Shown here piece after piece: positions 11,889 through 63,904 of a DNA stretch of 64,000 nt (its first letter is position 1; every line of letters starts with the position of its first letter). Origin of the DNA: Escherichia coli (GTDB lineage: Bacteria; Pseudomonadota; Gammaproteobacteria; Enterobacterales; Enterobacteriaceae). The position numbers and the translations under genes were made by a program. The stretch is taken from assembly GCF_003334405.1 (NCBI RefSeq), contig NZ_QOWM01000002.1; one strand, written 5' to 3'. The notes under the pieces were generated by a model that did not search any database, was not told the origin of the DNA, and saw nothing but the letters and a program-made list of their open reading frames with translations.

Positions 11889-13142
11889 ATGTCAGGATCC
11901 AACACTGCAATCAGCCGTCGTCGTTTACTGCAAGGCGCGGGTGCCATGTGGCTATTGAGCGTAAGTCAGGTCAGTCTGGCTGCGGTCAGCCAGGTCGTGG
12001 CGGTGCGCGTCTGGCCTGCGTCCAGCTACACCCGCGTGACGGTGGAATCAAATCGTCAGCTGAAATATAAGCAGTTCGCGTTGAGTAACCCTGAACGCGT
12101 GGTGGTGGATATCGAAGATGTAAACCTGAACTCGGTACTCAAGGGGATGGCGGCACAAATTCGTGCAGACGACCCGTTCATCAAGTCGGCGCGCGTCGGG
12201 CAATTTGACCCGCAAACCGTACGGATGGTTTTTGAATTAAAGCAAAACGTAAAACCGCAGCTGTTTGCCCTTGCGCCGGTCGCCGGGTTTAAAGAGCGTC
12301 TGGTGATGGACCTCTATCCGGCCAATGCACAGGATATGCAGGACCCGCTGCTGGCGCTGCTGGAGGATTACAACAAAGGCGACCTCGAAAAGCAGGTGCC
12401 GCCAGCGCAAAGTGGTCCACAACCGGGTAAAGCAGGGCGCGATCGTCCGATTGTCATTATGCTTGACCCTGGCCACGGTGGCGAAGACTCCGGTGCGGTG
12501 GGGAAATACAAAACGCGCGAAAAAGATGTGGTATTGCAAATAGCTCGCCGTTTGCGCTCTCTGATCGAGAAAGAGGGCAATATGAAGGTGTACATGACGC
12601 GCAATGAAGACATCTTCATTCCATTGCAAGTGCGCGTAGCAAAAGCCCAGAAACAGCGTGCTGACCTGTTTGTCTCTATCCATGCCGACGCCTTTACCAG
12701 TCGTCAGCCGAGCGGTTCCTCTGTGTTTGCGCTCTCAACCAAAGGTGCAACCAGTACTGCGGCAAAATATCTGGCACAAACCCAGAACGCCTCGGACTTG
12801 ATTGGTGGCGTGAGCAAAAGCGGTGACCGCTATGTCGACCACACCATGTTCGATATGGTACAGTCGCTGACCATTGCCGACAGCCTGAAGTTTGGTAAAG
12901 CGGTACTGAATAAGCTCGGTAAAATCAACAAGCTGCATAAAAATCAAGTTGAACAGGCCGGGTTTGCCGTACTAAAGGCACCAGATATTCCCTCCATTCT
13001 GGTCGAAACGGCGTTTATCAGTAACGTTGAGGAAGAGCGTAAACTGAAAACGGCGACTTTCCAGCAGGAAGTTGCGGAGTCTATTCTTGCGGGGATTAAA
13101 GCGTATTTTGCCGATGGGGCGACGCTGGCGAGAAGGGGATGA
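11889..13142 (+). CDS. amiC: N-acetylmuramoyl-L-alanine amidase AmiC (Tat-exported)
   Basis: ORF 11799..13142. Start placed at the internal ATG giving 417 aa, beginning [19 protein letters not shown] (twin-arginine signal). Amidase_3 catalytic domain. Confidence 0.9.
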
Positions 13143-13145
13143 TAA

Positions 13146-13170
13146 AAAGGCGCTGAATGGCGCTTTTTTA
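13146..13170 (+). terminator. Putative intrinsic terminator after amiC
   Basis: Short GC stem (gcgc / gcgc with A-U extension) followed by tttttt at 13164..13169. The stem is weak. Confidence 0.4.
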
Positions 13171-13215
13171 TGGGAGACCAGAAACAAAAAAACACCCGTT
13201 AGGGTGTTCAATAAT

Positions 13216-13292
<77 letters not shown>

Positions 13293-13500
13293 TCCGTGGA
13301 TGCGCACTATACTCCGCTCGCGTTTTCATGCAACCTTTTTTTTACCCCGATCACGGATTTGGCATGATTTTGAACAAAAACAAATCACTAAAGCCTATTT
13401 TTTGTGCAAAATTTGCGTCAGGGAGAGGCTGCTCATTTCATTAAACGCGGCGGTTTGTTATCTTCGTTGCGCCTTATTTTTTAACCTGAAGAAGAGAACA

Positions 13501-14598
13501 ATGAAAGGACGTTGGGTAAAGTACCTTCTTATGGGCACGGTTGTGGCAATGCTTGCCGCCTGCTCTTCCAAACCAACCGATCGCGGACAGCAATATAAAG
13601 ACGGGAAATTTACCCAGCCTTTCTCTCTGGTGAACCAGCCAGATGCCGTTGGCGCGCCGATTAACGCCGGTGATTTTGCCGAGCAAATTAACCATATCCG
13701 TAATTCGTCACCGCGTCTGTATGGCAACCAGAGTAATGTTTATAACGCGGTGCAAGAGTGGCTGCGCGCAGGCGGTGATACCCGCAATATGCGCCAGTTC
13801 GGCATTGATGCCTGGCAGATGGAAGGTGCCGACAACTATGGTAACGTGCAGTTTACCGGTTATTACACGCCGGTAATTCAGGCGCGCCATACCCGCCAGG
13901 GCGAGTTCCAGTATCCTATTTACCGTATGCCGCCAAAACGTGGTCGTCTGCCGTCTCGTGCGGAGATCTACGCGGGGGCATTGAGTGATAAATATATTCT
14001 CGCTTACAGTAACTCCCTGATGGATAACTTCATTATGGATGTGCAGGGTAGTGGGTATATCGACTTTGGTGATGGCAGTCCGCTTAACTTTTTCAGCTAT
14101 GCAGGGAAAAACGGTCATGCCTATCGCAGCATTGGTAAGGTGCTGATCGACCGTGGCGAAGTGAAAAAAGAAGATATGTCGATGCAGGCGATTCGTCACT
14201 GGGGCGAAACACACAGTGAAGCCGAGGTTCGCGAGCTGCTGGAACAGAACCCGTCTTTCGTCTTCTTTAAACCGCAATCTTTTGCTCCGGTGAAAGGGGC
14301 AAGTGCGGTGCCGCTGGTTGGTCGCGCGTCAGTTGCCTCTGATCGTTCCATTATTCCGCCAGGTACTACCTTGCTGGCAGAAGTGCCGTTGCTGGATAAT
14401 AACGGCAAATTTAATGGTCAGTACGAACTGCGTCTGATGGTGGCGCTGGATGTCGGTGGTGCAATCAAAGGCCAACACTTCGATATCTATCAAGGGATCG
14501 GGCCGGAAGCCGGACACCGCGCAGGTTGGTACAACCACTATGGACGTGTCTGGGTGCTGAAAACCGCCCCGGGCGCAGGTAACGTCTTTAGCGGCTGA
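13501..14598 (+). CDS. mltA: Membrane-bound lytic murein transglycosylase A (lipoprotein)
   Basis: ORF 13072..14598. Start placed at MKGRWVKYLLMGTVVAMLAACSS, which has a lipobox (LAAC) and gives 365 aa. Confidence 0.9.
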   Translation: MKGRWVKYLLMGTVVAMLAACSSKPTDRGQQYKDGKFTQPFSLVNQPDAVGAPINAGDFAEQINHIRNSSPRLYGNQSNVYNAVQEWLRAGGDTRNMRQFGIDAWQMEGADNYGNVQFTGYYTPVIQARHTRQGEFQYPIYRMPPKRGRLPSRAEIYAGALSDKYILAYSNSLMDNFIMDVQGSGYIDFGDGSPLNFFSYAGKNGHAYRSIGKVLIDRGEVKKEDMSMQAIRHWGETHSEAEVRELLEQNPSFVFFKPQSFAPVKGASAVPLVGRASVASDRSIIPPGTTLLAEVPLLDNNGKFNGQYELRLMVALDVGGAIKGQHFDIYQGIGPEAGHRAGWYNHYGRVWVLKTAPGAGNVFSG

Positions 14599-14633
14599 TG
14601 TGATATTCTGTATGCCGTTTTTACGGATATGAC

Positions 14634-14816
14634 AGGGTGAGGGGTAACCTCACATCCTGATTATTGACTAAGTGCGCGTTGTTCATGCCGGATGCGGCGT
14701 GAACGCCTTATCCGGCCTACAAATCATGCAAATCCAAAATATTGCAGGAGTTATGTAGGCCTGATAAGCGTAGCGCATCAGGCATTTATGCGTTTAGGGT
14801 GAGGGATAACCTCGCC
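14634..14816. repeat. BIME: two inverted REP elements flanked by 21-bp direct repeats
   Basis: REP gccggatgcggcgtgaacgccttatccggcctac (14688..14720) and inverted REP gtaggcctgataagcgtagcgcatcaggc (14755..14783). Flanking repeats agggtgaggggtaacctcaca (14634..14654) and agggtgagggataacctcgcc (14796..14816). Confidence 0.7.
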
Positions 14817-14836
14817 CTTTTTAATTCTGAGGTGCT

Positions 14837-15643
14837 ATGTCTGTGGTAATTAGTGATGCATGGCGTCAGCGTTTTGGTGGCACAGCGCGTCTGTATGGTG
14901 AAAAAGCGTTGCAACTGTTTGCTGACGCGCATATTTGTGTGGTTGGTATCGGTGGTGTCGGTTCCTGGGCGGCGGAAGCGCTGGCGCGCACGGGGATTGG
15001 CGCAATCACGCTTATCGATATGGATGATGTGTGCGTCACCAATACCAATCGGCAAATTCATGCCCTGCGCGATAACGTTGGGCTGGCAAAAGCGGAAGTT
15101 ATGGCGGAGCGTATTCGCCAGATTAACCCGGAGTGCCGTGTAACGGTGGTGGATGATTTCGTGACGCCGGATAACGTAGCGCAGTATATGAGCGTGGGTT
15201 ATTCGTACGTGATTGATGCCATTGATAGTGTACGGCCCAAAGCGGCGCTGATTGCTTATTGTCGGCGCAATAAAATCCCACTGGTCACAACCGGTGGCGC
15301 GGGTGGGCAGATTGATCCGACGCAGATTCAGGTTACCGATCTGGCGAAAACGATTCAGGACCCGCTGGCGGCGAAGTTGCGCGAGCGCCTGAAAAGCGAT
15401 TTTGGCGTAGTGAAAAACAGTAAAGGTAAGCTCGGCGTGGATTGCGTGTTTTCTACTGAAGCACTGGTGTACCCGCAGTCAGACGGTACGGTGTGTGCGA
15501 TGAAAGCCACGGCAGAAGGGCCGAAGCGGATGGATTGTGCATCTGGATTTGGCGCGGCAACGATGGTGACCGCCACCTTTGGGTTTGTTGCGGTTTCTCA
15601 TGCGCTGAAGAAGATGATGGCGAAAGCGGCGCGTCAGGGTTAA
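14837..15643 (+). CDS. tcdA: tRNA threonylcarbamoyladenosine dehydratase (ThiF/MoeB-like E1 fold)
   Basis: 268-aa ORF with nucleotide-binding motif VVGIGGVGSWAAEALAR. Context is next to csdE/csdA. Confidence 0.88.
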   Translation: MSVVISDAWRQRFGGTARLYGEKALQLFADAHICVVGIGGVGSWAAEALARTGIGAITLIDMDDVCVTNTNRQIHALRDNVGLAKAEVMAERIRQINPECRVTVVDDFVTPDNVAQYMSVGYSYVIDAIDSVRPKAALIAYCRRNKIPLVTTGGAGGQIDPTQIQVTDLAKTIQDPLAAKLRERLKSDFGVVKNSKGKLGVDCVFSTEALVYPQSDGTVCAMKATAEGPKRMDCASGFGAATMVTATFGFVAVSHALKKMMAKAARQG

Positions 15644-17777: not shown

Positions 17778-17983
17778 AAAAAAAAGCACCGCAATTAGGC
17801 GGTGCTACATTAATCACTATGGACAGACAGGGTAAATGTACAGGAAGTGAAAAAAGGTAGCTTTGCTACCATGGTCTGAATCGCAGACCAATTGCAAACA
17901 CAACAACACAACATCACAACCGTAAGCCAAAAGTTCACCAGAACACGCATTCCGATAAAACTTTTCGTTCCGGCTCAGGAAGT
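17778..17983 (-). ncRNA. gcvB: GcvB small regulatory RNA
   Basis: The reverse complement matches the gcvB sequence as I recall it, from 5' ACTTCCTGAGCCGGAACG to the terminator hairpin (gcaccgcctaattgcggtgc) and U-tract. It is divergent from gcvA, with a TATAGT -10 just upstream on the minus strand. Confidence 0.85.
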
Positions 17984-35398: not shown

Positions 35399-35944
35399 GT
35401 GGACGATTTGACCGCACAAGCCCTGAAAGATTTTACTGCACGCTACTGCGATGCGTGGCATGAAGAGCATAAAAGCTGGCCGTTAAGTGAGGAACTGTAC
35501 GGTGTTCCTTCACCGTGCATTATTTCAACTACCGAAGATGCCGTATACTGGCAACCCCAGCCGTTTACCGGGGAACAAAATGTAAACGCGGTTGAACGCG
35601 CTTTTGATATTGTGATACAACCCACAATTCATACCTTTTATACGACTCAGTTTGCCGGGGATATGCACGCGCAGTTTGGCGATATCAAACTGACATTGCT
35701 GCAAACCTGGAGTGAAGACGACTTCCGTCGGGTGCAGGAAAATCTGATTGGTCATCTGGTGACTCAGAAAAGGCTAAAACTGCCGCCCACACTATTTATC
35801 GCGACGCTGGAAGAAGAGTTAGAGGTCATCTCGGTGTGTAATCTCTCCGGTGAAGTGTGCAAAGAGACGCTGGGAACACGTAAACGGACGCATTTAGCCT
35901 CAAATCTTGCGGAATTCCTTAATCAACTTAAGCCTCTTCTGTAA
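35399..35944 (+). CDS. syd: SecY-interacting protein Syd
   Basis: 181-aa ORF recognised as Syd. Confidence 0.88.
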
Positions 35945-35963
35945 TCCAAATACCCCATCTGGT

Positions 35964-35981
35964 TGTGAGAGATCTCTTACA
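35964..35981. promoter_or_regulatory. 18-bp palindrome upstream of csrB; candidate UvrY (BarA-UvrY) binding box
   Basis: Perfect palindrome tgtgagagatctcttaca about 165 bp upstream of csrB. Confidence 0.55.
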
Positions 35982-36144
35982 GACTCTGTAGGAGATCGCC
36001 AGGAAATAAGCGAATACTTAAAAAGATAAGAATCGTTATTTTCATTTAAAATCAAAATGTTGATTGTTAATTCTTAACTTTCATATGAAATTTTCCTTAA
36101 GGCATTGTCTGTAAGCGCCTTGTAAGACTTCGCGAAAAAGACGA

Positions 36145-36520
36145 TTCTATCTTCGTCGACAGGGAGTCAGACAACGAAGTGAACATCAGGATGATGACAC
36201 TTCTGCAGGACACACCAGGATGGTGTTTCAGGGAAAGGCTTCTGGATGAAGCGAAGAGGATGACGCAGGACGCGTTAAAGGACACCTCCAGGATGGAGAA
36301 TGAGAACCGGTCAGGATGATTCGGTGGGTCAGGAAGGCCAGGGACACTTCAGGATGAAGTATCACATCGGGGTGGTGTGAGCAGGAAGCAATAGTTCAGG
36401 ATGAACGATTGGCCGCAAGGCCAGAGGAAAAGTTGTCAAGGATGAGCAGGGAGCAACAAAAGTAGCTGGAATGCTGCGAAACGAACCGGGAGCGCTGTGA
36501 ATACAGTGCTCCCTTTTTTT
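36145..36520 (+). ncRNA. csrB: CsrB, CsrA-sequestering small RNA
   Basis: About 370 nt with roughly 20 reiterated GGA motifs (caggatg, aggaca, cagggag). Ends in a terminator hairpin gggagcgctg..cagtgctccc plus ttttttt (36488..36520). The 5' end is approximate. Confidence 0.85.
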
Positions 36521-36565
36521 ATTCCTGCTATCCTTCGCGGCAGTTTTTCTTATTGAGGTTGCTTT

Positions 36566-36895
36566 ATGACCACTCATGACCGCGTTCGTCTCCAGTTGCA
36601 GGCGCTTGAAGCGTTACTGCGTGAACATCAGCACTGGCGAAACGATGAACCCCAGCCGCATCAATTTAATAGTACCCAACCGTTCTTTATGGACACCATG
36701 GAACCACTGGAGTGGTTGCAGTGGGTGCTGATCCCGCGAATGCACGATTTGTTAGATAACAAACAGCCGTTACCGGGCGCTTTTGCCGTTGCACCCTATT
36801 ATGAAATGGCGCTGGCGACGGACCATCCGCAACGCGCGCTTATTCTGGCTGAGCTGGAAAAACTGGATGCTCTTTTTGCGGATGATGCGAGCTAA
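36566..36895 (+). CDS. yqcC: DUF446 protein YqcC
   Basis: 109-aa ORF. Its stop overlaps the truC start (TAATG). Confidence 0.82.
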   Translation: MTTHDRVRLQLQALEALLREHQHWRNDEPQPHQFNSTQPFFMDTMEPLEWLQWVLIPRMHDLLDNKQPLPGAFAVAPYYEMALATDHPQRALILAELEKLDALFADDAS

Positions 36896-37677
36896 TGCTG
36901 GAAATACTCTATCAGGATGAATGGCTGGTTGCGGTAAATAAACCCTCCGGCTGGCTGGTTCACCGCAGCTGGCTGGATCGCGACGAGAAAGTAGTGGTCA
37001 TGCAAACCGTGCGTGACCAGATAGGCCAGCATGTTTTTACTGCTCATCGTCTGGACCGACCCACTTCTGGTGTGTTGTTGATGGGATTATCCAGCGAGGC
37101 CGGACGGCTGCTGGCACAACAGTTTGAACAGCACCAAATCCAGAAACGTTACCATGCGATTGTGCGCGGCTGGTTGATGGAAGAAGCGGTGCTGGATTAT
37201 CCACTGGTGGAAGAACTGGACAAAATCGCTGATAAATTTGCCCGCGAAGATAAAGGCCCGCAGCCAGCAGTGACGCATTATCGCGGTCTGGCGACCGTAG
37301 AAATGCCGGTAGCGACCGGACGTTACCCGACCACGCGCTACGGCCTGGTGGAACTGGAGCCGAAAACCGGACGCAAACATCAGCTTCGCCGACATCTTGC
37401 CCATTTGCGTCATCCGATTATTGGCGATAGCAAACATGGCGATTTACGCCAGAATCGCAGCGGTGCTGAGCATTTTGGCCTCCAGCGGTTAATGCTACAT
37501 GCCAGTCAGTTGTCATTGACGCATCCTTTTACTGGCGAGCCGCTGACTATTCACGCGGGCCTGGACGACACCTGGATGCAGGCGTTATCACAATTTGGCT
37601 GGCGCGGTCTGCTTCCTGAAAATGAAAGGGTTGAGTTCAGTGCGCCATCGGGTCAGGATGGAGAGATAAGTTCCTAA
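36895..37677 (+). CDS. truC: tRNA pseudouridine65 synthase TruC
   Basis: 260-aa ORF, RluA-family pseudouridine synthase with catalytic HRLDRPTSG motif. Confidence 0.9.
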
Positions 37678-37694
37678 TCCAGGGAGAAAACGGT

Positions 37695-38144
37695 ATGGCG
37701 GAAATTGGTATTTTTGTCGGCACCATGTACGGGAATTCACTGTTAGTGGCCGAAGAAGCGGAAGCGATTCTGACCGCGCAGGGCCACAAAGCAACGGTAT
37801 TTGAAGATCCTGAATTAAGCGACTGGCTGCCCTATCAGGATAAGTATGTTCTGGTGGTTACGTCCACGACCGGGCAGGGCGACCTTCCTGATAGCATTGT
37901 GCCACTCTTTCAGGGAATCAAAGATAGTCTGGGCTTCCAGCCGAATCTGCGTTATGGCGTGATTGCGCTCGGCGACAGTAGTTATGTGAATTTCTGCAAT
38001 GGCGGCAAACAGTTCGATGCCTTGTTGCAGGAACAGAGCGCTCAGCGGGTTGGCGAAATGCTGTTGATTGACGCCAGTGAGAACCCGGAACCGGAAACGG
38101 AATCAAATCCGTGGGTCGAACAGTGGGGCACGCTGTTGTCCTGA
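37695..38144 (+). CDS. yqcA: Flavodoxin-like protein YqcA
   Basis: 149-aa ORF with flavodoxin signature ([11 protein letters not shown]). Confidence 0.88.
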
Positions 38145-38578
38145 TATGTTCAGCGAGCGGTAAATGTCGTTTTAGCGGTGCTGAATCGAATCTTTTCAGG
38201 CAAATGCCAGTAAAAACTGCTTCATAGCGCGGATTTTTACTGGCGTTTGCCTGGAGTCAAGCGATCCATTTCATACTCTTCTTTATTTCTTCGTTTTAAC
38301 CCTTCCTTTCTTGTTCTTGTTTTCATTTCCGTGAAGTGGATTCCACCGTCCAGGGCTAATGCCAAAATCGGGCCTCATTGAACGCATTAATGTTGTGTTG
38401 TTGCACGGTGAGCCGCTATGGCGCGCTTTTTATACTGCTATTGCCAGATATAAACACGCGCCGTATTCGGCGAACGACCTATAAAAACGGCAAAAAACAC
38501 CCTACGTCACCTCTGATTTCCTGGCGATGTCGCAGTCCAGAGTGAGCGTGGCTAACGCGAATTTTCAGGAGTGCAACA

Positions 38579-39931
38579 ATGAGTTCTTTAAGTCAGGCTG
38601 CGAGCAGTGTGGAAAAACGCACAAATGCTCGTTACTGGATAGTGGTGATGTTGTTTATCGTCACATCCTTCAACTACGGCGACCGCGCTACGCTCTCTAT
38701 CGCCGGTTCGGAAATGGCCAAAGATATCGGCCTTGATCCCGTGGGAATGGGCTATGTGTTCTCTGCTTTCTCATGGGCTTATGTTATCGGGCAGATCCCT
38801 GGTGGCTGGTTGCTGGACCGTTTTGGTTCAAAACGCGTCTACTTCTGGTCGATCTTTATCTGGTCGATGTTTACCTTGCTGCAAGGCTTCGTCGATATCT
38901 TTAGTGGATTCGGCATTATCGTTGCCCTGTTTACGCTGCGCTTCCTGGTCGGGCTTGCTGAAGCGCCATCTTTCCCCGGCAACAGTCGCATTGTTGCGGC
39001 CTGGTTTCCGGCGCAGGAAAGGGGAACGGCGGTGTCGATTTTTAACTCCGCTCAATACTTCGCAACGGTGATCTTCGCGCCGATTATGGGCTGGCTGACG
39101 CATGAAGTGGGCTGGTCACACGTCTTCTTCTTTATGGGCGGTCTGGGGATTGTCATCAGCTTTATCTGGTTGAAAGTCATCCACGAGCCAAATCAACATC
39201 CGGGGGTAAATAAGAAAGAGCTGGAGTACATCGCCGCGGGTGGTGCGCTGATCAATATGGATCAGCAAAACACCAAAGTTAAAGTGCCGTTCAGCGTGAA
39301 GTGGGGGCAGATCAAACAGCTGCTAGGGTCACGGATGATGATCGGCGTTTATATCGGTCAGTACTGTATCAACGCCCTGACTTACTTCTTTATTACCTGG
39401 TTCCCGGTTTATCTGGTGCAGGCACGCGGGATGTCGATTCTGAAAGCGGGCTTTGTGGCTTCCGTTCCGGCGGTTTGCGGTTTTATCGGCGGTGTGCTGG
39501 GTGGGATTATTTCCGACTGGCTGATGCGCCGCACGGGATCGCTGAACATTGCGCGTAAAACACCGATCGTAATGGGCATGTTGCTGTCGATGGTGATGGT
39601 GTTCTGCAACTACGTCAACGTTGAGTGGATGATCATCGGCTTTATGGCGCTGGCCTTCTTCGGTAAGGGCATCGGGGCGCTGGGTTGGGCAGTAATGGCA
39701 GATACCGCGCCAAAAGAGATCAGCGGTCTTTCCGGTGGCCTGTTCAACATGTTCGGTAACATTTCTGGCATCGTCACGCCAATCGCAATTGGTTATATCG
39801 TTGGCACGACTGGCTCGTTTAATGGGGCGCTGATTTATGTTGGTGTTCATGCCTTAATCGCGGTACTGAGCTACCTGGTGCTGGTGGGCGATATCAAGCG
39901 TATCGAGTTGAAACCTGTTGCGGGGCAATAA
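38579..39931 (+). CDS. gudP: Glucarate/galactarate MFS transporter GudP
   Basis: 450-aa ORF with multiple transmembrane segments. Confidence 0.9.
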
Positions 39932-39932
39932 G

Positions 39933-41273
39933 ATGGCGACACAATCCAGTCCTGTTATTACTGATATGAAAGTCATTCCGGTGGCCGGGCATGACAGCAT
40001 GTTGCTTAATATTGGTGGGGCACATAACGCATATTTCACCCGCAATATTGTGGTACTCACCGATAACGCCGGGCATACCGGCATTGGTGAAGCGCCGGGC
40101 GGAGATGTGATTTATCAGACGCTTGTCGATGCTATTCCGATGGTTCTGGGCCAGGAAGTTGCGCGACTGAATAAAGTGGTCCAGCAGGTGCATAAAGGTA
40201 ATCAGGCCGCCGATTTTGATACCTTCGGTAAAGGTGCCTGGACCTTTGAATTACGCGTTAACGCCGTGGCGGCGCTGGAAGCCGCTTTGCTTGACCTGCT
40301 AGGTAAGGCGCTGAATGTTCCGGTCTGCGAACTGTTAGGGCCAGGCAAGCAACGCGAGGCTATTACCGTCCTCGGTTATCTGTTTTATATCGGTGATCGG
40401 ACCAAAACCGATCTTCCTTATGTGGAAAATACGCCGGGCAACCATGAGTGGTATCAGTTGCGGCATCAGAAAGCAATGAACAGCGAAGCCGTTGTGCGTC
40501 TGGCGGAAGCCTCACAGGATCGCTACGGCTTTAAAGATTTCAAACTTAAGGGCGGCGTGTTACCTGGCGAGCAAGAAATCGACACTGTTCGTGCATTGAA
40601 GAAACGCTTCCCGGATGCGCGGATTACCGTTGATCCCAACGGTGCATGGCTGCTTGATGAAGCCATTTCTTTATGCAAAGGGCTGAATGATGTTCTTACC
40701 TATGCCGAAGATCCATGCGGCGCAGAACAGGGCTTCTCCGGACGTGAAGTGATGGCGGAATTTCGACGGGCGACCGGCTTGCCCGTCGCGACTAACATGA
40801 TCGCCACCAACTGGCGCGAAATGGGTCATGCGGTGATGCTCAATGCGGTAGATATTCCACTTGCCGATCCGCACTTCTGGACGCTTTCCGGTGCAGTCCG
40901 TGTGGCGCAGCTTTGCGACGACTGGGGGCTGACCTGGGGCTGCCATTCTAATAACCATTTCGATATCTCTCTGGCGATGTTTACCCATGTGGGCGCGGCG
41001 GCACCGGGTAATCCTACCGCTATCGATACCCACTGGATTTGGCAGGAGGGCGATTGTCGCCTGACCCAAAATCCGCTGGAGATTAAAAACGGAAAAATTG
41101 CCGTTCCTGATGCGCCCGGTCTGGGCGTGGAACTGGACTGGGAACAGGTACAAAAGGCACATGAGGCCTATAAACGTCTGCCTGGCGGTGCGCGTAACGA
41201 CGCAGGTCCGATGCAGTACCTGATCCCCGGCTGGACCTTTGACCGTAAACGTCCCGTTTTCGGCCGTCATTGA
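39933..41273 (+). CDS. gudX: Glucarate dehydratase-related protein GudX (enolase superfamily)
   Basis: ORF 39918..41273. Start placed at [22 protein letters not shown], giving 446 aa. Paralogous to the next ORF. Confidence 0.88.
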
Positions 41274-41293
41274 TTCTGAAAAAGGACATAAAT

Positions 41294-42634
41294 ATGAGTT
41301 CTCAATTTACGACGCCTGTTGTTACTGAAATGCAGGTTATCCCGGTGGCGGGTCATGACAGTATGCTGATGAATCTGAGTGGTGCACACGCACCGTTCTT
41401 TACGCGTAATATTGTGATTATCAAAGATAATTCTGGTCACACTGGCGTAGGGGAAATTCCCGGCGGCGAGAAAATCCGTAAAACGCTGGAAGATGCGATT
41501 CCGCTGGTGGTAGGTAAAACGCTGGGTGAATACAAAAACGTTCTGACGCTGGTGCGTAATACTTTTGCCGATCGTGATGCTGGTGGGCGCGGTTTGCAGA
41601 CATTTGACCTACGTACCACTATTCATGTAGTTACCGGGATAGAAGCGGCAATGCTGGATCTGCTGGGGCAGCATCTGGGGGTAAACGTGGCATCGCTGCT
41701 GGGCGATGGTCAACAGCGTAGCGAAGTCGAAATGCTCGGTTATCTGTTCTTCGTCGGTAATCGCAAAGCCACGCCGCTGCCGTATCAAAGCCAGCCGGAT
41801 GACTCATGCGACTGGTATCGCCTGCGTCATGAAGAAGCGATGACGCCGGATGCGGTGGTGCGCCTGGCGGAAGCGGCATATGAAAAATATGGCTTCAACG
41901 ATTTCAAACTGAAGGGCGGTGTACTGGCCGGGGAAGAAGAGGCCGAGTCTATTGTGGCACTGGCGCAACGCTTCCCGCAGGCGCGTATTACGCTCGATCC
42001 TAACGGTGCCTGGTCGCTGAACGAAGCGATTAAAATCGGTAAATACCTGAAAGGTTCGCTGGCTTATGCAGAAGATCCGTGTGGTGCGGAGCAAGGTTTC
42101 TCCGGGCGTGAAGTGATGGCAGAGTTCCGTCGCGCGACAGGTCTACCGACTGCAACCAATATGATCGCCACCGACTGGCGGCAAATGGGCCATACGCTCT
42201 CCCTGCAATCCGTTGATATCCCGCTGGCGGATCCGCATTTCTGGACAATGCAAGGTTCGGTACGTGTGGCGCAAATGTGCCATGAATTTGGCCTGACCTG
42301 GGGTTCACACTCTAACAACCACTTCGATATTTCCCTGGCGATGTTTACCCATGTTGCCGCCGCTGCACCGGGTAAAATTACTGCTATTGATACGCACTGG
42401 ATTTGGCAGGAAGGCAATCAGCGCCTGACCAAAGAACCGTTTGAGATCAAAGGCGGGCTGGTACAGGTGCCAGAAAAACCGGGGCTGGGTGTAGAAATCG
42501 ATATGGATCAAGTGATGAAAGCCCATGAGCTGTATCAGAAACACGGGCTTGGCGCGCGTGACGATGCGATGGGAATGCAGTATCTGATTCCTGGCTGGAC
42601 GTTCGATAACAAGCGCCCGTGCATGGTGCGTTAA
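41294..42634 (+). CDS. gudD: D-glucarate dehydratase GudD
   Basis: ORF 41270..42634. Start placed at [23 protein letters not shown], giving 446 aa. Strong similarity to the upstream paralogue is visible directly. Confidence 0.9.
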
Positions 42635-42757
42635 GACAGAAAACCAAAACCGGCTCTATCTGGAGTCGGTTTGAGACTGATGCTAAACGCAAAATAGCCT
42701 GTTGTGCTATGTATCAGGTCTACATCATTTTTTAATTCATTGAATTTAATTGGTTTT

Positions 42758-42791
42758 GTAGGCCGGATAAGGCGTTAACGCCGCATCCGGC
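42758..42791. repeat. REP element between convergent gudD and barA
   Basis: gtaggccggataaggcgttaacgccgcatccggc is the reverse complement of a canonical REP. Confidence 0.6.
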
Positions 42792-42865
42792 ATAAACACA
42801 GGCACTTTGTCACCAATCTGAAACCAGCGTCATAAAAAGCCGATTGCTACTCGACAAGACATCCA

Positions 42866-45622
42866 TTACCCGAGAATTTTGCTGGCTTCGCGCGCGACAT
42901 TATCCATCTCGTCCAACAGTTCCAGCAGCTCCGGTTCCAAATCTTCTTCTTTAGTACCGCTACGTAGCTGTTGTTCGATCAGTTGGCAGAGATTCTTCAT
43001 ACGTGGCACACCGCTATAGCCGCAACTGCCATGCAGTTTATGAATCAAATCAACCAGGCCTTCCGGGTTTTCTCCAACCAGCTGTTCCTCAACTTTGTTG
43101 CGAACTTCAGGCAGGAAATCGAGTAACATTTGCAGCATATCGCGCGCTAAATCGGTTTTTCCTGCTGCCTGGCGTAGTGCCAGTTGCCAGTCGAGGGTCG
43201 CATTCGGGTTCACCACAATTTCGTTGACTTCGGGCGTCACGACGCGAGAGGAAATACCGCTGCCAGGCTTGTAGCGCAACAACAAATTATGCAATCGCTC
43301 TTCTTCAATCGGTTTCGCCAGATAATCGCTCATCCCTGCGCCAAGCAGCTTCTCTTTTTGCCCGGCCATTGCATGCGCCGTTACCGCGATAACCGGCGTT
43401 TGTTGCTGATGCGGGAGTTGGTGGATGAGTTCGCAGGCCCGAATGCCATCCATGTCCGGCATTTGAATATCCATTAAGATCAAATCGAACGGCATCTGTT
43501 TCGCCCGTTCAACCGCCTGATGCCCGCTATCGCAAAGTTCCACATGTTGCACCATATCTTCCAGCAATGCGCCGATAAGTTTCAGGTTAGCGGGGTTGTC
43601 ATCAACCGCCATGACTGTCATTGCCAGCTTACTTTCATCGGTTACAGGCAAAAGCGTGTTTTGTTTGTGATGACAAAATTCCGTCAGGGCAGGCAACAGG
43701 CGTGTAGGTGTTAATGGTTTCAGCAGACACGCGCCGATACCATCTTGCTTGAGTTTTTCAGCATTGACTTGTGCATGGCAAGGAAGTGCCAGCATCAGGA
43801 AATCGGTCATCGATACCGCTTTCGCTAATCGCTCATGTTGCATTGTTAGCGGCTCGCGGAAGGTCACCGCGATGCCTAACAACATCATGTCGTAATGCGC
43901 GGGAGGCAGCGCGGAGAACGTTGGGCTATAAACCACTTCCAGCGGCGTTTCACTTAAAATATCCAGCGTGCATTGCGCTGCTGCGGAGTTTGGTTCGACA
44001 TAGGCCAGGCGCTTACCTGCGAGGCACTGGGTGGATGGCCCTTCGATAATAATGTTCGGGTTCAGATCGAGATTAATGTGGAACCAGAAAGTTGAACCGC
44101 GATTCGGCTGGCTATGGAACGAAATATCGCCGCCCATTTCATTAACCAGTTTTTGTGTAATCACCAGCCCCAGCCCGGTGCCACCATGACGGCGGGAAAT
44201 ACTGGCATCAGCCTGTCGGAAGGCCTGGAATAAGCGCGATTGATCGCGTTCAGGAATACCAATGCCGGTATCCCGAATCTGCACTTCAATCTGCACTTTG
44301 GTATTACTCAGCGCACGTTTTTCTACCAGAATATCAATGTTGCCATTCTCGGTGAATTTAATTGCATTCCCCACCAGGTTAGTGATGATTTGCTGTAATC
44401 GCAGCGGGTCGCCGATCACGTTATCAGGCACGTCGCTTTTAATATTGAGCGTCAGTTCTAACCCTTTATCGTGAGAAGAATGTGCCAGCAGAGTAACGAC
44501 TTCATCCAGCGTGCTGCGTAGTGGGAATGGAATACTTTCCAGAATCAGCTTACCTGCTTCCAGTTTCGAGAAGTCGAGAACATCATTAATAATTGCCAGC
44601 AAATTATTTGCCGAACGTTCAATCGTATTCAGGTGATCGCGCTGCGTTGGTGTTAATTCTGTTTTCAGCGTCAGGCGGGTAAAGCCAATAACACCATTCA
44701 GTGGTGTACGCAGCTCGTGTGACATATTTGCCAGAAACTCGGATTTAATACGCGCCGCTTCCTGGGCGCGCTTTTTCGCCAGATCTAACTCAACGTTCTG
44801 AATTTCCATCTGCTCCAGCGTTTCACGCAGATCGGACGTCGCCTGGTCGATATTGTGCTGCATCTCTTCGTGATAAGCAGCCAGCGACATTGCCATCGAG
44901 TTGATACCGTTTTTCAGCATATCCAGCTCGCCGAGCATAAATCCTTCCACCCGGCTGTCGAGTTGCCCGCGACGGATGCGGTCGACGGTATTCACCATGT
45001 TGCGAATCGGACCGGTTACATCGCGCATTAAGCGCCAGCCAAAAATAAGCGCAATACCGATACAAAACAGCATCATCACGCTGGAAATAAAGATCTCTTT
45101 ATATTGCTGCAAGCGAACCGATTTAAGATCCAGCTCCAGCGCAATATATCCCAACATATTTTGACTATTTTTGGCATCGCTACTGGGCGATTCGTCGGGG
45201 GAGTAACTCTCAGAAATAATCGGCGTGCGGAGGATCATAATATCGCCGTCACGAGTGACAGTGAGCTGGCGAGGAAACGGCACGTTGCTGCCGAGCTGCA
45301 TTGATGAGGGATCAAGATGAAAATTGGAGGTGACAAAGAGTCGGTTATTTTCATCATAAACCGAAATCGCGCGAACAATATCGGAATGGCGACGATGCAG
45401 TACGCTTATTAACTGACCGATAGATTCGCGATTTTGCAGGCTCATGCCATATTCAGTAGAAACTGCAAGCGGCTCAATAATGCTGGCACCGGCATCTTCC
45501 AGTTGACGCTGCAAGTCGTTATAGCGATGCACGACGAAAAAGATACTCAGCAATAAACCAATAAGGACGGTCGGTGCCAGGATCAGAATCATCATGCGTG
45601 CGCGCAGGCTGTAGTTGGTCAT
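42866..45622 (-). CDS. barA: Hybrid sensor histidine kinase BarA (HAMP, HisKA/HATPase, receiver, HPt)
   Basis: 918-aa ORF with H-box (SHELRTPLN), a receiver region ([12 protein letters not shown]) and C-terminal HPt region. Confidence 0.93.
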
Positions 45623-63487: not shown

Positions 63488-63751
63488 ATATTGCCGGATA
63501 AATTAAACGCCTCTGTCAGAAATGATGGGGGCGTTTTTATTTTGCGAGCAGTATTCCTGATTTTAAACGTGAACGCCGCTGGAAGAATTATCAGGTATAG
63601 AATGGCGTCGGGTGCTTGAGGCTGTCTGGCGTTAAGCATTCGCGAGGTTCCAGATGGACAAAAGCCCCAGGCGATATTTCTATCAACCTGAGGCTTACGT
63701 TCGAACCCAAACAATTCGAATGTTAGTCTCTTCTTTGCAGGGAGGCAAGAC

Positions 63752-63904
63752 ATGCTGACAAAATATGCCCTTGTGGCAATCATAGTGCTGTGTTTTACAG
63801 TACTGGGATTCACGCTGATGGTAGGCGACTCGTTGTGTGAGTTGAGTATCAGAGAACGTGGTATGGAGTTTAAGGCAGTTCTCGCTTACGAATCGAAGAA
63901 GTAG
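63752..63904 (+). CDS. Hok/Gef-family type I toxin (50 aa), HokE-like
   Basis: Not in the ORF track because it is under 60 aa. I translated it by hand: [51 protein letters not shown] ggagg SD sits 7-11 nt upstream. It has one transmembrane helix and the conserved SLCE...R and AYES motifs of the Hok family. Confidence 0.7.

Follow-up and report, generated by a model that had tools for sequence, protein, structure and literature searches.

The closest described counterpart of the locus analysed here is csrB of Escherichia coli K-12 MG1655 (b4408), which is annotated as a 369 nt ncRNA between syd and yqcC. The K-12 RNA, identical to the one encoded here, binds and sequesters multiple CsrA dimers (PMC4682653 and PMC5027483). 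In E. coli the tripartite histidine kinase BarA (918 aa) responds to carboxylates, acetate and formate among them, by phosphorylating UvrY; UvrY-P in turn binds an 18 bp repeat upstream of csrB (PMC4682653). Zere et al. (2015) found this repeat by UvrY ChIP-exo; they call it an '18 nt nearly perfect palindrome', and its centre lies at -183/-182 of E. coli csrB. Only the phosphorylated form of UvrY protected it from DNase I, and UvrY binding at csrB in vivo required BarA and IHF (PMC4682653). The same study noted a 'partially conserved additional sequence', which reads TGTAGGAGA and follows the repeat after 5 bp, and placed a putative IHF site between two UvrY crosslinking regions; at csrB, UvrY needs IHF to bind and activate optimally (PMC4682653). 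A promoter-proximal ChIP-exo signal, extending from -56 to +25, was recorded without a UvrY-P footprint in vitro (PMC4682653). Regarding the removal of the RNA, Vakulskas et al. (2016) describe the decay of CsrB (+1 to 369) as following an RNase E cut in an unstructured segment directly 5' of the terminator; CsrA protects this segment, and CsrD overcomes the protection (PMC5027483).

Two further systems are relevant. E. coli csrC resembles csrB in having the same regulator, a far-upstream repeat starting TGTGAGA and CsrA-sponge logic, but at 246 nt it is shorter. The csrC repeat, TGTGAGACATTGCCGATA, is far less symmetric than that of csrB, the extra half-site lies 16 bp upstream of the csrC repeat rather than 5 bp downstream as at csrB, and csrC, unlike csrB, shows no IHF dependence (PMC4682653). 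In Pseudomonas, the orthologous two-component system GacS/GacA activates the CsrA/RsmA-sponge RNA genes rsmY and rsmZ; these RNAs belong to other Rfam families and are much shorter than CsrB. The target of GacA is an upstream activating palindrome of the type TGTAAG-N6-CTTACA.

We analysed a 64 kb window, by which we mean the whole stretch of E. coli DNA under study (64,000 nt). From the letters alone, a csrB gene of about 370 nt had been placed in the syd-yqcC spacer, with a covariance-model scan proposed as the check. An Rfam covariance scan of the whole window returned a full-length match to CsrB/RsmB (RF00018) at 36164..36523 (+), covering model positions 1-356 of 356 with a score of 380.4 bits (E 1.2e-110), which exceeds the gathering score of 71 more than fivefold and supports the placement. 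From the first base of syd through the last of yqcC (35399..36895), the window matches K-12 MG1655 at 1497/1497 positions, and the 369 nt extent of the gene in Table 1 was transferred from the K-12 annotation, where csrB occupies the equivalent position. The locus does not differ from K-12 csrB in sequence, length, GGA-loop hairpins, terminator or flanking genes; the surrounding window, by contrast, is not K-12-like throughout, and a difference in tRNA-Met copy number lies outside the csrB locus.

Table 1. Features of the csrB locus and its surroundings, in window coordinates
Feature	Position	Strand	Basis or comment
syd	35399..35944		Upstream neighbour of csrB
UvrY-P upstream activating site, 18-mer TGTGAGAGATCTCTTACA	35964..35981	.	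Match to published footprint
Third half-site TGTAGGAGATCG	35987..35998	+	Direct copy of repeat left arm and centre, 5 bp downstream
IHF consensus match AATCAAAATGTTG (WATCAANNNNTTR)	36050..36062	+	Pattern match; between UvrY site and promoter
ORF, 62 aa	36097..36285	-	Open frame, judged spurious
Putative core promoter	36120..36148	+	-35 TTGTAA 36120..36125, 17 bp spacer, -10 GATTCT 36143..36148
csrB	36155..36523	+	RF00018, K-12 b4408 identity, GGA count, fold, covariation
ORF, 71 aa	36362..36577	-	Open frame, judged spurious
RNase E 'necessary cleavage site', probable position, GAAACGAACC	36478..36487	+	Directly 5' of terminator
csrB intrinsic terminator	36488..36520	+	Stem-loop 36488..36513, then TTTTTTT
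yqcC	36566..36895		Downstream neighbour of csrB
barA	42866..45622	-	ORF, 918 aa; annotated BarA WP_000186450.1 at matching coordinates in strain E2865

We consider it nearly certain (a probability of roughly 97%) that the locus is E. coli csrB in its canonical form, encoding a CsrA-sequestering RNA activated by UvrY-P and IHF, with an inherited proximity to barA. We found no evidence contradicting the canonical reading. The original prediction had described the arrangement as a known circuit, and all of its elements do match the published system. As csrB, the UvrY-P site, IHF dependence and CsrD/RNase E decay are already published for the identical sequence, the finding of csrB here has little discovery value, and the mechanism outlined below would carry over from the published work on K-12.

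The 701 bp region around csrB (35900..36600) was found in 5426/5426 complete E. coli genomes, always with at least 95% identity. For 22 of these genomes, coverage of the region at any single place stayed below 80%, and one match was on a plasmid. The prediction that csrB is easy to miss also held: PGAP records of E. coli (RefSeq H1-H12) carry only syd and yqcC under 35900-36600 and have no csrB feature. Readers of such a record would see a seemingly empty spacer of 620 bp with two spurious ORFs, in a place that encodes a main global regulator of carbon metabolism, motility and biofilm formation; this gives the locus its value for annotation.

The RNA itself shows the expected signature of a CsrA sponge. 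CsrB contains 22 GGA triplets in 369 nt (roughly 20 had been predicted), compared with a window background of 4.8, and the next-highest count in any other 369 nt stretch of the window was 13. The prediction had also proposed that the motifs be located in loops. When the 21 GGA triplets inside the model were placed on the Rfam consensus structure, 11 fell in hairpin loops, eight in single-stranded linkers and two in paired positions, and all 11 non-terminator hairpins presented GGA in the loop. With hairpin loops accounting for 19% of the model, the binomial P for 11/21 in loops is about 7e-4. Folding with ViennaRNA gave a free energy of -120.7 kcal/mol (z = -3.85 against dinucleotide shuffles), with nine GGA triplets in hairpin loops in the minimum-free-energy structure and 11 in the centroid, and 16 and 17, respectively, fully unpaired. 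RNAalifold analysis of 23 homologues from more than 15 genera revealed compensatory double changes in 17/46 consensus pairs, including GGA-loop hairpins and the terminator stem, in a MAFFT alignment that recovers the Rfam structure only in part. The terminator, previously described as strong, was identified by a terminator scan as an 11 bp stem with seven G-C pairs and a 4 nt loop, followed by T7. The gene product would be an untranslated RNA of 369 nt with a strong intrinsic terminator at its 3' end, and its 22 GGA motifs (11 in loops and eight in linkers) would serve as high-affinity decoys that draw CsrA dimers off their mRNA targets.

The decay determinant described for K-12 can also be located. 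We provisionally assigned the RNase E 'necessary cleavage site' to GAAACGAACC by its position directly 5' of the terminator, where PMC5027483 puts the segment; the exact nucleotides are approximate. This segment is single-stranded in the Rfam structure, and AAACGAACC is nearly invariant in the 23 CsrB homologues. Removal of CsrB would proceed by an RNase E cut before the terminator, which CsrA binding would block and CsrD would permit by relieving the block.

Both minus-strand frames listed in the original prediction, and dismissed there as spurious, do exist (Table 1). They could be real small-protein genes, in which case the region would be coding rather than an RNA gene, and it is true that both frames are open here and in the closest Escherichia relatives. 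However, the 62 aa frame already has a stop in E. albertii and Citrobacter, and in most other genera both frames are fragmented by one to three stops even though the DNA is still alignable. No CDS is annotated there in either K-12 or the PGAP record, and conservation follows the pairing of the plus-strand RNA, in which compensatory changes occur. We therefore give the coding interpretation practically no credence. The terminator, the unconserved antisense ORFs and the absence of a K-12 CDS at this position all characterize CsrB as a non-coding RNA with Rho-independent termination.

Upstream of csrB, the prediction had drawn attention to a perfect palindrome about 165 bp from the gene, and had suggested comparing it with published UvrY/SirA footprints. 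Two details needed correction. The repeat is only nearly perfect, with 8/9 pairs (16/18 bases) and a mismatch in which the G at 35967 faces the T at 35978 (G4/T15), and the gap between its end and the csrB +1 measures 173 bp. The suspected resemblance to the UvrY-responsive element proved to be exact: TGTGAGAGATCTCTTACA is letter for letter the UvrY-P site of Zere et al. (2015), and with +1 at 36155 its central bases, 35972 and 35973, fall at -183 and -182 (centre -182.5), the same position relative to +1 as in K-12. Further correspondences with the published site are TGTAGGAGA lying 5 bp downstream and the IHF site lying toward the promoter; we saw no differences (PMC4682653). The repeat also fits the 18 bp inverted-repeat form TGTRAG-N6-CTYACA.

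Symmetry by itself says little about such a sequence. The window contains ten 18-mers with 8/9 pairs, compared with 6.9 +/- 2.5 in shuffles, which is not above chance. The significance of TGTGAGAGATCTCTTACA rests instead on its identity to the published footprint and on its conservation. A second palindrome with 8/9 pairs, AACTTTCATATGAAATTT, is present at 36076..36093 (-79 to -62), between the IHF site and the -35 hexamer; it is AT-rich and poorly conserved across genera, and we rejected it as probably a chance occurrence.

The csrB loci of other species (n = 59) were fetched with a csrB-internal 20-mer, an anchor that is independent of the repeat. The anchor biases the sample to csrB genes that keep it, and Salmonella and Klebsiella were not retrieved, so the figures that follow describe this sample and are not family-wide. 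Full-length CsrB was present in every enterobacterial locus tested, with Rfam scores of 203-377 bits. Five of the 59 loci, from Anaerolineae, Desulfovibrio, Acidobacteria, Paenibacillus and Bathyarchaeota, had no CsrB model match, and these non-enterobacterial chance loci served as negative controls. Among the native csrB copies of other Enterobacterales with enough upstream sequence to be assessed (n = 51), the repeat was found with at most two mismatches in 49; the remaining two had three to four mismatches at the same distance. The best repeat matches in the five control loci had 6-8 mismatches and lay at scattered distances. In 20/23 mapped modules the Rfam model start followed the centre of the repeat at a distance of 188-193 bp. 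In an alignment of 50 modules, conservation peaked at the repeat, at TGTAGGAGATCG, at the ATCAA-N4-TTG IHF core (36050..36062) and at the TTGT of the -35 hexamer.

Two loci in this sample were unusual. Enterobacillus tribolii (L046:7700-9299, minus strand) carries three tandem full-length csrB genes (232-239 bits) at a spacing of about 610 bp. Each copy has its own upstream repeat with two mismatches, accompanied by the third half-site in the form TGTGAGAGATCG in two copies and in the degenerate form TGTGAGCCTTCT in the third; in this species the entire enhancer-promoter-RNA module is triplicated. A 797 bp contig of a Phyllobacterium myrsinacearum assembly (L043:246-797) carries a 6S RNA (139.8 bits) and, after 45 bp, a CsrB resembling that of E. 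coli (318 bits), which the contig end cuts short; the native csrB upstream region is absent. This contig appears to be either a chimera or enterobacterial contamination within an alphaproteobacterial assembly.

These comparisons bear on whether the 18 bp palindrome is a protein-binding site of csrB at all, or instead arose by chance or forms a hairpin or terminator in the syd RNA. The repeat begins only 20 bp past the syd stop codon, and the unexceptional number of 8/9-pair 18-mers in the window would also be compatible with chance. However, the terminator scan was negative at the repeat and no T-run follows it. The pattern of conservation is likewise not that of a hairpin, because across genera it is the bases that are kept and not the pairing: the G4/T15 mismatch was retained in 42/50 modules and flipped to A4/C15 in three, and a perfect 9/9 palindrome occurred in 0/50. 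Chance would account neither for a distance between repeat and csrB that is fixed to within a few base pairs, nor for the separate repeat that accompanies each tandem csrB copy in Enterobacillus. UvrY-P also footprints the repeat in vitro (PMC4682653). We regard a chance or syd-related origin as extremely improbable, and interpret TGTGAGAGATCTCTTACA as the UvrY-P site of csrB.

The alignment also clarified the element downstream of the repeat. The published TGTAGGAGA maps to 35987..35995 in the window, within the third half-site of Table 1. A TGTRRGANATC motif was present in 46 of the 50 modules; in 45 it stood 5 bp past the repeat, and its commonest form was TGTGAGAGATCG, which indicates that the E. 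coli third half-site is slightly degenerate. Judged by sequence, our comparison adds to the published description (PMC4682653) a conserved third half-site at the downstream element, and in most of the other genera its likeness to the arm exceeds that of the E. coli element. The IHF core was present in 41/50 modules, with the ATCA and TTR positions forming conserved columns. IHF probably acts at ATCAA-N4-TTG (at about -100) by bending the DNA, bringing UvrY-P to RNA polymerase at a weak promoter.

A promoter scan found no consensus-grade sigma-70 promoter upstream of csrB, which fits the activator dependence of the gene and the weakness of the promoter proposed here. The putative -35 and -10 hexamers were placed by their spacing to +1 at 36155 and by conservation, the -35 TTGT being 90-100% conserved and GATTCTA moderately conserved in the 50-module alignment. 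A terminator-like hairpin on the minus strand over the -10/+1 region (36157..36140) was rejected, having only five pairs and arms that do not form a repeat in other genera.

The -35 hexamer overlaps a half-site-like TGTAAGA (36121..36127), which is seen in Enterobacteriaceae. This sequence could be a fourth UvrY half-site, touched directly by looped UvrY-P, which would explain the promoter-proximal ChIP-exo signal. TGTRAGA occurs four times in the 64 kb on both strands, compared with 10.9 expected, and three of the four lie upstream of csrB; the TGTAAGA in question is inside the published downstream crosslinking interval (PMC4682653), and in addition to the strong conservation of TTGT, TTGTAAGA is found in 25/50 modules. 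On the other hand, the conserved TTG is probably nothing more than the -35 core. Erwiniaceae carry TTGTTTGC at that position, and E. coli csrC, which has the same promoter-proximal crosslinking, has TTGATTGTTTG without a half-site. The region is also unprotected by UvrY-P in vitro, and the authors favour indirect crosslinking via RNA polymerase (PMC4682653). We think a fourth half-site unlikely. We are equally doubtful of a related model, in which the conserved unit is not a simple palindrome but consists of three half-sites (the two inverted arms and the direct copy 5 bp downstream) and UvrY-P may form a higher-order oligomer that touches promoter DNA directly via the IHF bend. If that model were true, the site would be directional by virtue of its conserved G4/T15 asymmetry. 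The cross-genus comparison as such represents a modest refinement of the UvrY site, in terms of the third half-site, the fixed spacing and the asymmetry, and could be of use for modelling UvrY/GacA-type activators.

Finally, the prediction had pointed out that barA, which encodes the sensor kinase of the pathway, lies only 6 kb from csrB. Its coordinates were correct and its distance approximately so, barA being 6.3 kb from the csrB 3' end; it is encoded on the opposite strand, convergent with csrB, with yqcC, truC, yqcA and gudPXD in between. Strain E2865, the source of the matching BarA annotation, is 100% identical to the window over the 701 bp query 35900..36600. The genes uvrY, csrA, csrC and csrD were absent from the 64 kb window, and a tblastn search of the window for CsrA returned nothing.

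It is conceivable that the closeness of barA and csrB is itself functional, through selected co-localization or shared regulation, given that barA was convergent and downstream of csrB in 10 of the 11 loci whose downstream flank reached 7.5 kb or more. The loci with this synteny came from Escherichia, Kosakonia, Yokenella, Mangrovibacter, Buttiauxella, Phytobacter, Erwinia and Pantoea (the Pantoea match being partial and 47% identical). However, BarA works by a diffusible phosphorelay to UvrY, whose gene lies elsewhere. The gap varies from 1.6 to 9.5 kb and is occupied by the unrelated yqcC, truC and yqcA and, in some lineages, gudPXD. Enterobacillus has no barA within 7.7 kb of csrB, and the functionally unrelated GcvB is likewise syntenic. 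The varying gap, the intervening genes and the synteny of GcvB are explained by vertical synteny, and we consider a functional role for the proximity very unlikely; it looks like ancestral Enterobacterales gene order and not evidence of cis or functional coupling.

The csrB-barA gaps fell mainly into two classes, one of about 1.7 kb (E. albertii, Erwinia persicina, Pluralibacter and Yokenella) and one of about 7.4 kb (Kosakonia, Mangrovibacter and Phytobacter); gaps of 2.9, 8.3 and 9.5 kb were also seen. The size difference fits the gudPXD glucarate operon, located in the gap here (36523-42866), being present in some lineages and missing from others: loci without gudPXD-sized sequence had a gap of about 1.7 kb, the others one of 7.4-9.5 kb.

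Several other features of the window were recorded. The GcvB sRNA is encoded at 17778-17983 (-), with a full-length Rfam match of 199 bits, and in the Phytobacter, Edwardsiella, Winslowiella and Izhakiella loci GcvB was also found, within about 7-9 kb of csrB. A single tRNA-Met (CAT) is present at 13216-13292 (-), between amiC and mltA, where the best-matching E. coli genomes show two and need two alignment pieces, indicating that the window holds a contracted copy of a tandem initiator-tRNA array; 12600..15000 was matched contiguously by only 226/5426 E. coli genomes. A sok-type antitoxin RNA (RF01794, 113 bits) at 63610-63767 (+) adjoins cysH and a Hok/Gef family gene and is a chromosomal hok/sok locus; similar sequence was found at up to 22 places per genome, on plasmids too. 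A match to the ES036 (CssrF) sRNA lies at 14720-14762 (+) with 46.5 bits, and the 2.4 kb around it holds a repeated element that recurs in E. coli genomes, at a median of 39 places in each.
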